Origin: Schmidtea polychroa
Lineage: Eukaryota
Assembly (NCBI GenBank): GCA_044892525.1
Contig: CM097885.1
Location: 16,494,001-16,558,000 of the forward strand
Length of the DNA stretch: 64,000 nt
Direction of reading: 5' to 3'
Part shown: piece after piece, positions 41,601-44,600 of the stretch
Layout: each line of letters begins with the position of its first letter
Numbering within the stretch: position 1 is the first letter of the stretch
The notes under the pieces: model-generated
Seen by the model: only the letters and a program-made list of their open reading frames with translations
Told to the model about the DNA's origin: nothing
Database searches by the model: none
Translations under genes and position numbers: made by a program

Positions 41601-44600
41601 AAAATATTTCTCAACTTCAATCACTACAAATCAGACTGGTGATTTCATTGATTTCTTCAATAGTGTTGATTGATGAACGTCTATTTATGATGAGGTTTGC
41701 CTCTTAAAATCTGAAATTTTTTTGGATGTTGTCACTGGGTAAGAATTTAATAAAAATTTTTTTCCTTCCTTAGTTGACATTGTTCGAGACGTCTGTATGC
41801 CGAGGACTTCCTAGCAGGATTTAGATGATTTCTTTTTTGTGTTGTTTGCCAAGACTTATGTGCCATACGAACTAGATGTACAGTATATTTAAGTTCTTTC
41901 AAGATCTTGAAGTCGAGAACGCTGCTGATGAATGGAATATTCAGATAAAAATATTTCTTCTTTTATGTTTTGTTTTCCTAGGTCTTTTTGGATTTGAAAT
42001 CATTTTTTCAATGTCCTAATTGTGAAGGACTTTAATGAAGTTTCATTGCTGTTTATAGTTCCCCTTCTCTTCAGTACATCAATTAACCATCCTTAATTTC
42101 TCGCTTTTTTATGACATTTAATTTCTATAAGTATGGAAGTACTGATCTTTAGTATATTAGTATATGACAGTGGGGGTACGCGATGGATTTTTTGGGGGTA
42201 CCCAGGCCTTTTCAATCTTCTATTATCTAAATATTAAAAGATAAATAAAAAAAATTTAATTAGATTAAAATTTCTTATTAAAATTTTATTAATACAGAAA
42301 AATACAAATATAATCTTGTTTTTTATTTATTTTTTTATTTTTTATTTATAATGTTTATATTATTTTAATGTTAGACATCCGTAAAAAAATATTTTACTCC
42401 TTTACAAGTTAAAAATGCTAAAGGTTTATGGATGCAACTGTAAACAGTTCCTGTTTATGACGGTGTCTCCAGAGGCGAATATGATTTCTCATACGCCATG
42501 TTTACAAGTTTGCAGATATTTTTATTCTGTGATTTAGCGAATTTGCAAGTGATGTGATTTCCAGTGTAGCAGGGAAAGTATGCAATAGAGTTGAATCAGC
42601 AATATTGTATACTTACCTGGCACGAAGAGAAATCTCCGTGTCTCCTACATAGTACTGATGAGATCCAAAAGCTCGAAACTAGTCTACTATTGGGATTTTC
42701 ACTGGGTATCACAAAGCTTGTAATGTTTATATTATTTTAATGCTAGACATCCGTAAAAAATATTTTTATTTATTGTTTATATTTTCGAATCAATAATATA
42801 TTTTTAAAAATAAACTAAGTTTAAAAATCAAAGCATAAAGTAAATCATTTATATAAATGTAATTAAAATGTAAAGCAAATGTAAAGCAAAGGGGTACATT
42901 ATATAATGAAAATGATCAAGGTGGTACGCAGTACCAAAAGTTTGGGAAACACTGGTATAAGGGAACTCTTAATTTATAACATTCTTCATTCTCAATCACT
43001 TTGTCACGGTGCCTCATTTGCCCACCATATATTAATACATTTGAGTTTCCTAAAATTATAAATTGAAACATAAATGGACGATGTCCCTCACTGGCGTACA
43101 GTAGCATAAATATACAAGGTCTTCAAAATTTCCCACAAGAAAAAATCGGTTTATATAAAAAAGGTTAATTAAAAATCTGCGTTTTTATTTTGTTTTTTAT
43201 TGATTTTCACAACTTCTTTGATGTACTAGGATGAGTAATATATATTTAACAAATTCTGGAATAAAAATTACCGTTTTCTCACAACTGAATTTAGACGATA
43301 TATGGAAAAAGATTCTGTCCTCTCCGGCAATGATGTAGCTTACACCATAACCATCGTCAGCAACTGGACCAAAGCCTCCTCCAGCACAAATGAAATTTGG
43401 ATAACGGCTGGAAACAATAATTATCAACCAGCAACTACAACATCAGCATATTAATTTAACCCCTTCGTTATGAGCTATTATTTTAAGAATTTTTTTCTCG
43501 TAACAGTCATATGAGAACAAGTGAAACATATAATAATAATAATAATAATAATAATAATAATAATAATAATAATAATAATAATAATAATAATAATAATAAT
43601 AATAATAATAATAATAATAATAATAATAATAATAATAATAATAATAATAATAATAATAATAATAATAATAATAATAATAATAATGATAATAATAATAGTA
43701 ATAATAATAATAATAATAATAATAATAATAATAATAATAATAATAATAATAATAATATTAATAATAATAATAATAATAATAATAATAATAATAATAATAA
43801 TAATAATAATAATAATAATAATAATAATAATAATAATAATAATAATAATAATAATAATAGTAATAATAATAATAATAATAATAATAATAATAATAATAAT
43901 AATAATAATAATAATAATAATAATAATAATAATAATAATAATAATAATAATAATAATAATAATAAATAATAAATAATAATATATAATAAATAATAATAAT
44001 AAAAATAATAATAAAAAATAATAATAATATTAATAATAATTAATAATAATAATAAAAATAATAATAATAATAATAATAATAATAATAATAATAATAATAA
44101 TAATAATAATAATAATAATAATAATAATAATAATAATAATAATAATAATATACCTCAGATTAAGACGTTTTGATTGACCAAGAGGAGTCTGTGATGTACT
44201 CAATTTCCAAGGTTCGGTAAGAACCTTTTCCAGAAATTCACTCTTGAAATTAAGAAACTGACATACGACGTACATGCAAAATAAGTGCCGATCGACACCT
44301 CTGCCAGTCATGGCATCACGATATAATTGTTGATGATACTCTGCAGCTTTTTGGAAATAAAGTAGTTTTGTTGAACGCTTTTTACAATTATTAAATAGAT
44401 CAAATTCATTTAACTATAAATTACGGGAATTTTCGGATCATCAATTGATCTGACAGCTTCGCATACCTCAGCGCTACAGCTCCTCACAGTCTCCGTTCGA
44501 CCATCTCGAAATAATCGAGTCATTGAAGATTCATAAGTTTGACAAAACTTCCCATTCATCTTCCCAATAGGAAAGAAATAGAGTAATCTTTTTTATTAAA

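Follow-up and report, generated by a model that had tools for sequence, protein, structure and literature searches.

A repeat bearing a hammerhead ribozyme lies in a 64,000-nt stretch of the genome of Schmidtea polychroa (hereafter the window; 27.8% G+C, in a genome of 781 Mb) and raises the questions of what kind of element it is, what copies it and in what form its RNA is copied. We consider, with a probability of roughly 0.78, that the family to which it belongs is a non-autonomous non-LTR retrozyme that is copied by a Penelope-like element (PLE) and carries the first 16 bases of U1 snRNA upstream of its hammerhead. Animal non-LTR retrozymes and their link to PLEs have been published (Cervera and de la Pena, 2020, PMC7229834; Li, Clavereau and Pollet, 2026, 10.64898/2026.07.22.740005; PMC8557442; here and below, cited works are drawn upon to the extent of the excerpts available). 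The focal element probably belongs to this known kind, of which it is a variant set apart by its U1 tract.

The focal copy (Table 1) has the 372-bp period and terminal redundancy that the first-pass annotation had given it, positions 42346-42395 and 42718-42767 being identical at 45 of 50 sites, and the absence of coding capacity reported at the same time is borne out by a longest ATG frame of 40-50 aa on concatenated units. The 11-bp duplication that flanks the insertion is likely to be a target-site duplication, and the end of the transposon remnant that received the unit is presumably hAT-like. In metazoan non-LTR retrozymes such duplications, where there are any, exceed 4 bp; the focal one is of low complexity, and many copies of the family lie in microsatellites. 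A decayed PLE1-related fragment (41608-42153, minus strand) adjoins this host transposon, and a carnitine acyltransferase-like gene (exons at 43270-43400, 44030-44413 and 58713-59114, minus strand) has its end just past the focal insertion. Elsewhere in the window are two LTR-retrotransposon-like elements (12961-18108, with identical 245-bp terminal repeats, and 26107-30354), a Tc1-like transposase fragment with weak Pfam HTH matches (52652-53323, minus strand) and a frame without a Pfam hit (59741-60256, plus strand) that we take to resemble the restriction-like endonuclease of a non-LTR element. A mir-753 match at 4382-4443 scores 65.6 against an Rfam cut-off of 62 bits; its overlap with a repeat and a weaker match in locus L052 suggest a repeat-related hairpin.

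Table 1. Features of the focal insertion, related copies and resident PLEs in the window
Feature	Position	Strand	Remarks
Retrozyme-like insertion (subfamily A)	42346..42766	+	372-bp unit plus ~49-50 bp of terminal redundancy; 92-94% to many genomic copies
Type I hammerhead, focal copy	42649..42690	+	Helix I 6 bp, helix II 4 bp (1 mismatch here), palindromic helix III
Predicted cut, focal hammerhead	after C42684	+	Position inferred from hammerhead consensus
U1 snRNA 5'-end tract	42609..42624	+	Focal copy 13 nt exact, 15/16; family majority 16/16
snRNA-promoter-like motif	42541..42548	+	-68 from U1-like first base; best 8-mer of 372 positions
5' arm of long predicted hairpin	42569..42587	+	Pairs with U1-like tract; donor-like in many subfamily A copies, GT lost here
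Short hairpin between U1 tip and hammerhead	42620..42641	+	2 mismatches in focal copy
11-bp low-complexity AT-rich duplication	42339..42349, copy 42763-42773		Left end; from empty-site comparison with 8 copies of host transposon
Non-coding DNA-transposon remnant	42173..42954		Recipient of the focal unit's insertion
One-unit copy L064 (379 bp), atypical phase	32376..32756	-	Intact hammerhead 32665-32706; U1 tract from 32746
104-bp 3' fragment with dead hammerhead core	32170..32273	-	~100 bp of unrelated DNA between it and L064
Head-to-head (5'-inverted) insertion L063	8539..8999		8539-8696 minus, 8700-8999 plus; 2 hammerheads
PLE1, 5'-truncated, RT and GIY-YIG, 3' pseudo-LTR	38918..41041	+	Candidate mobiliser, not the unit's parent
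Minimal hammerhead of PLE1, U3-A8 core	40950..40988	+	Present in 29/30 PLE1 loci
PLE2 3' fragment: GIY-YIG, pseudo-LTR	34573..35320	-	Decayed hammerhead 34634-34669; tail resembles subfamily B tail

Five ribozyme-bearing copies had been listed in the window, and hammerhead motifs do stand at all five places (8586-8627, 32215-32256 and 32665-32706 on the minus strand, 8874-8915 and 42649-42690 on the plus strand), but the core at 32215-32256 is broken (CTAATGC, GAAACCAGTC), leaving four intact. The pattern CTGATGA-N13-GAAAC matches four times in the window against 0.20 expected, and four or more matches arose in none of 100 shuffles. The pair at 8545-9000 is inverted, as described, whereas 32170-32755, which had been described as head-to-tail, is not a clean dimer and consists of one unit, unrelated DNA and a short additional piece.

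The hammerhead had also been called minimal. By the definitions in PMC4209133 it is instead of the canonical metazoan type I, in which helix I has 6 bp, helix II 4 bp and helix III only 1-2 bp and a loop that is palindromic; the helices of the unit are of 6, 4 and 2 bp, helix III being closed by a palindrome. The minimal hammerhead of PLEs is defined there by a short helix I, a long helix II with an unpaired 5' base and an absent or reduced helix III. The palindromic stem III was correctly recognized and permits a predicted dimer fold, two ribozymes co-folded through helix III reaching -19.2 kcal/mol versus -8.2 for the monomer; it is as a dimer, by this means, that the unit RNA is predicted to cleave itself. 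Folding predictions further place the monomer far below shuffled sequences (z -9.35; as a circle, z -5.5 and -10.6). A search with hammerhead models returned the tandem copies as Rfam Hammerhead_1 with an E-value of 0.0017, although their 27.4 bits fall short of the gathering score of 34. Stem covariation, a further mark looked for across copies, was absent: among 210 copy segments (15 overlapping or duplicate loci dropped) there were no compensatory stem changes, those present being one-sided.

Genome-wide, there are at least 798 exact 33-nt cores and 1,043 copies that combine the U1 tract with the core, each against a control of zero. In a sample of 27 copies chosen by whole-unit similarity (L022 and L028 dropped) the core was intact in 21 and exact over its 33 nt in only nine, indicating that the family is larger than 798. 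It comprises two subfamilies about 82% alike, A with a unit of 372 bp and B with one of about 380 bp (to 383). Most copies are single and of one unit or less; tandem copies are rare and short (three identical units at L051, dimers at L105, L110 and L112, with periods of 371-383 bp) and carry two or three hammerheads, and the 372-383-bp unit fits the 150-450-bp size range of retrozymes. The family is abundant and, judged from the three identical tandem units at L051, young. Relatives were sought as well. The U1-plus-hammerhead pattern gave four matches in a metagenome collection and no repeat of the retrozyme-unit kind; further hammerhead families that share this helix III were absent among the 100 listed of 115 matches; and another 34 matches comprised just PLE-type or old copies. 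Loci L191 and L203 are old, diverged hammerhead elements with another motif where the U1 tract would sit, a motif that we take to be tRNA B-box-like. A tRNA-headed sister family was rejected, just these two related loci being found among four matches.

The way in which copies begin and end bears on what mobilises them. End statistics were drawn from places on contig C1, which holds the window (the first 100 of the 798, 90 of them retrieved; the duplicate or overlapping loci L052, L053, L059 and L061 dropped), and cover 90 core-bearing segments at 86 loci. The 3' end lies 40-62 nt past the predicted cut in 56 segments, 63-110 nt past it in 27 and elsewhere in seven, while 5' ends are spread round the unit with a variable truncation point. 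The initial observation that copies start at different points of the unit is right in so far as 5' ends vary, but for the most part this is 5' truncation from a preferred 3' end. A 5' inversion adjoins 21 of the 90 segments, the 3' flank is a microsatellite in 39, and insertions often lie within (AAT)n or (AT)n. Preferred 3' end, 5' truncation, 5' inversion and AT-microsatellite targets together form a PLE-type signature, and the resident PLEs share it. PLEs have been described as nicking at ATT and initiating reverse transcription internally, downstream of the hammerhead (PMC11167929). Because the anatomy of the unit is that of the resident PLEs and agrees with this mechanism, we strongly infer that the unit is mobilised by a PLE. 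It resembles PLE pseudo-LTRs in its preferred 3' end, from which the hammerhead is 50-70 nt away, in its 5' inversions and microsatellite targets, and in its partial tandems (PMC4209133; PMC11167929; PMC8557442); it differs from them in lacking a linked ORF and in its canonical ribozyme, that of PLEs being minimal.

Five PLE families with hammerheads, situated 50-70 nt from their 3' ends, are found in the genome, and with these the unit has short blocks in common. Were the unit merely the pseudo-LTR of an autonomous PLE outside the sample, both features would follow, yet we regard this as very improbable: in a tblastn search with two PLE proteins, none of 176 sequences showed a PLE ORF that continues in sense orientation into the unit, the pseudo-LTR of none of the five families aligns with it beyond short blocks, and L051, L105, L110 and L112 are pure tandems of the unit. 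Linkage to PLE ORFs had been suggested as a check from the outset, and no copy sampled in that search proved to be the pseudo-LTR of such an ORF. As for the mobilising partner, the proposal of a non-autonomous, PLE-mobilised family agrees with the PLE-like anatomy and the strong predicted fold, but the PLE at 38918-40567 that had been put forward is one of five candidates, and its pseudo-LTR has no significant sequence in common with the unit. PLE1, the family to which it belongs, has many open 856-aa frames. At locus L086 (C1:35078291-35082323) an inverted PLE1-type 3' piece is joined head-to-head to one unit between (AAT)n tracts.

Two families other than PLE1 resemble the tail of the unit more. 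The last 25 nt of subfamily B are similar to the tail of PLE2 (p 0.006) and to that of PLE5 (p 0.01-0.016; 12 comparisons per region), likenesses that are short, AT-rich and confined to subfamily B, PLE5 having been picked by eye among the five families; the tail of subfamily A is like that of none of the five. In addition, a 16-nt block across the U1 junction, taking in the 9 nt before the U1 tract and the tract's first 7 nt, agrees with the PLE5 pseudo-LTR at 15 of 16 positions (p 0.0005-0.002; 12 comparisons per region). We read this as descent of the unit from a PLE2- or PLE5-like pseudo-LTR. PLE2 was rejected as an intact engine, a full open frame being present in none of 14 extended loci, and the sampled copies of PLE5 are broken. 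The PLEs themselves yielded a separate observation: the pseudo-LTRs of PLE1 and PLE3 bear minimal hammerheads with a U3-A8 core (40950-40988; 51140-51185, minus strand; L275-L303), which escape standard CUGANGA searches; in one copy of PLE3, L292, the pair is compensatory, namely the usual C3-G8. The PLE-type hammerhead pattern matches 3,443 times genome-wide (controls 8 and 18), mostly in PLE2-related sequence among the 100 matches listed.

Whether the template is linear or circular can be approached through the lengths of copies. Among 29 segments that reach 350 nt, 17 end by 419 nt, against an earlier hazard of 0.23 per 70 nt (p 3e-5), a pile-up at one unit that rests on non-independent copies selected for an exact core. 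Copies L064, L086, L074 and L111 have atypical 3' ends yet are about one unit long, and L231, L249 and the focal copy are exceptions to a one-unit limit tracking the copy's own 3' end. Since the limit follows the copy's own start and not the cut site, a circular monomer template is favoured. The competing reading is that of a linear, uncleaved, non-autonomous derivative of a PLE, in effect a self-sufficient pseudo-LTR, whose hammerhead is passive or protein-assisted, which forms no circle and whose partial tandems stem from internal initiation of reverse transcription. Nearly all sampled copies do read through the cut site (none of the 90 5' ends falls at it), linear PLE RNAs give all of the same anatomy, as the resident PLEs and published accounts attest (PMC11167929; PMC8557442), and PLE hammerheads cleave poorly, with low or no activity in many such motifs (PMC4209133). 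In vitro, uncleaved RNA was the principal substrate of a PLE (PMC11167929). For retrozymes themselves, eight of nine Xenopus dimers did not cleave (10.64898/2026.07.22.740005). We nevertheless judge the linear derivative unlikely: in several copies the pile-up at one unit goes with the 3' end of the copy itself, self-pairing is predicted over the whole unit, and the ribozyme is canonical, not of the PLE type.

The U1 tract begins 46 nt upstream of the core. Its majority sequence is identical to nt 1-16 of the U1 genes at L031, L033 and L037 and agrees with the variant U1 gene at L041 over 18 of 19 nt; the 16-nt prefix match compares with 13 nt at most in 3,000 shuffles. The tract is internal, not the 5' head of the unit, and just three of 90 5' ends lie within 4 nt of its first base, about two being expected. 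A captured U1 gene flank was rejected as its source, the DNA upstream of the tract being without homology to U1 genes. Planarian U1 variants have been described, with no promoter element found in the part of that account available (PMC6312358). A motif was learned here from the upstream DNA of 12 U1, U2, U4 and U5 genes, where it sits at -58 to -79; its total score exceeded those of all 12 shuffled sets. At a width of 8 its best position in the unit is -68 from the U1-like first base, rank 1 of 372 in subfamily A and 1 of 383 in B (ranks 1-3 at widths 10 and 12), with shuffle p values of 0.007 and 0.025 for a motif that is short and AT-rich. A second U1-like start lies on the minus strand of L034, about 340 nt downstream from where a U1 variant gene begins. 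It is like the tract of the unit at 18 of 19 nt, has a promoter-like motif upstream and is unrecognised by Rfam; it is possibly a U1 pseudogene or an snRNA-like gene.

One reading that would add to mobilisation by a PLE is that the retrozyme is self-promoting: its snRNA-type Pol II promoter would be a working one, and its RNA would truly start, under selection, at the U1 tract. Besides the placing of the motif at -68 in both subfamilies, contigs of run X6, from a second organism, speak for it: their longest alignments take in the U1 tract and reach 27 nt beyond the cut, stopping at the other end no more than 3 nt from the U1 first base, and the differences listed fall in loop II and in the partner arm of the short hairpin but not in the tract. 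These alignments come from mapping at 80% likeness, which selects conserved blocks, and from the rows listed (six omitted) for a run whose kind was guessed. On the other side, 5' ends do not pile up at +1, the upstream DNA is unlike U1 gene flanks, the PLE5-like block takes in the first 7 nt of the tract, and within the genome the U1 11-mer has no excess conservation (rank 154 of 383 positions in 210 segments). We hold this reading to be possible, with the balance against it.

In the predicted fold the tract also serves as the 3' arm of a long hairpin, whose 5' arm is donor-like in many subfamily A copies, and by this prediction it is masked. An alternative thereby arises for the likeness to U1 itself, which would exist because the tract is complementary to a splice donor: it would be an intramolecular mask, paired with the donor-like arm that lies 36 nt upstream, and would close a PLE-type intron of 80 nt with its end in helix I. 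Apart from the predicted hairpin, a donor-like GT is present in 40 of 113 spanning segments, an AG stands at the edge of helix I, and the intron of D. virilis Penelope likewise stops where helix I begins on its 5' side (PMC4209133). Complementarity to a donor covers about 11 nt, however, and not the 16-19-nt match, the youngest subfamily B has no GT, and copies with the spliced junction number zero in the genome with one mismatch allowed, although PLEs retain introns. The candidate 80-nt intron was rejected on that count, and we think the mask an improbable explanation, less so than an unsampled parent PLE.

For the retrozyme copied by a PLE, the following course of events is proposed. Rare tandem copies, bearing two or three hammerheads each, are present in the genome; they would be transcribed, possibly from the -68 motif and with the U1-like tract as the start. 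A pair of hammerheads acting through palindromic helix III is predicted to free a monomer, which, to judge from the known family and from copy lengths, would be ligated into a tightly paired circle in which a hairpin masks the U1 tract. A PLE endonuclease may then nick (AAT)n or (AT)n DNA, and reverse transcription starting in the AT-rich stretch about 50 nt past the cut would account for the fixed 3' end, the 5' truncations and inversions and the limit of about one unit. As for the U1 tract, a single entry through template switching into a PLE-derived pseudo-LTR is the most likely origin. It is conceivable, though rather doubtful, that the retrozyme goes further and makes up an snRNA-type transcription unit of its own, in which a capped, U1-tipped leader, the product of an internal promoter and a selected U1 5' end, is cut off by the hammerhead and a second tip is hidden in the hairpin of the circle. 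Where free, the tip could base-pair with 5' splice sites of the host, and so hold the RNA on transcripts still being made or disturb splicing.

Several known systems resemble the family in part. With metazoan non-LTR retrozymes it has in common a non-coding unit within 150-450 bp, a canonical type I hammerhead and strong self-pairing (PMC7229834), as well as monomers, short tandems and co-occurrence with PLEs; unlike them it has the U1 snRNA 5' tract and the snRNA-promoter-like motif, consists mostly of single truncated copies, shows scant homology to resident PLE pseudo-LTRs and is known here from sequence alone. Satellite 2 of newts is reported to combine a hammerhead with an snRNA-type Pol II promoter inside the repeat (Coats, Zhang and Epstein, 1994, cited in PMC2220036), an arrangement that the unit would match if the -68 motif works. 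The unit differs from it in being dispersed, and a U1 coding tract was not found reported for satellite 2 in the excerpts available. The SINEU elements of crocodilians, which are U1/U2-headed SINEs (Kojima, 2015, PMC4494074), are likewise non-autonomous retroposons with U1-derived sequence. In these the 5' head is what derives from snRNA, and promoter-like sequence was looked for without success according to the portion of that paper drawn upon; the U1 part of our unit is of 16-19 nt, internal and next to a ribozyme, and its insertions are of the PLE type. Among the papers listed in the literature searches, supplements and Repbase not included, none describes a retrozyme or a PLE repeat that contains a U1 tract.

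The mode of transcription and the copying enzyme are open questions for animal retrozymes, and this family offers a concrete candidate for the promoter motif, for the start base and for the cut site, as well as five PLE families resident in the genome, in a host that is tractable and in which RNAi is available. If the U1 tip is functional, the family would represent a mobile RNA that borrows both an snRNA promoter and the splice-site-reading end of U1.
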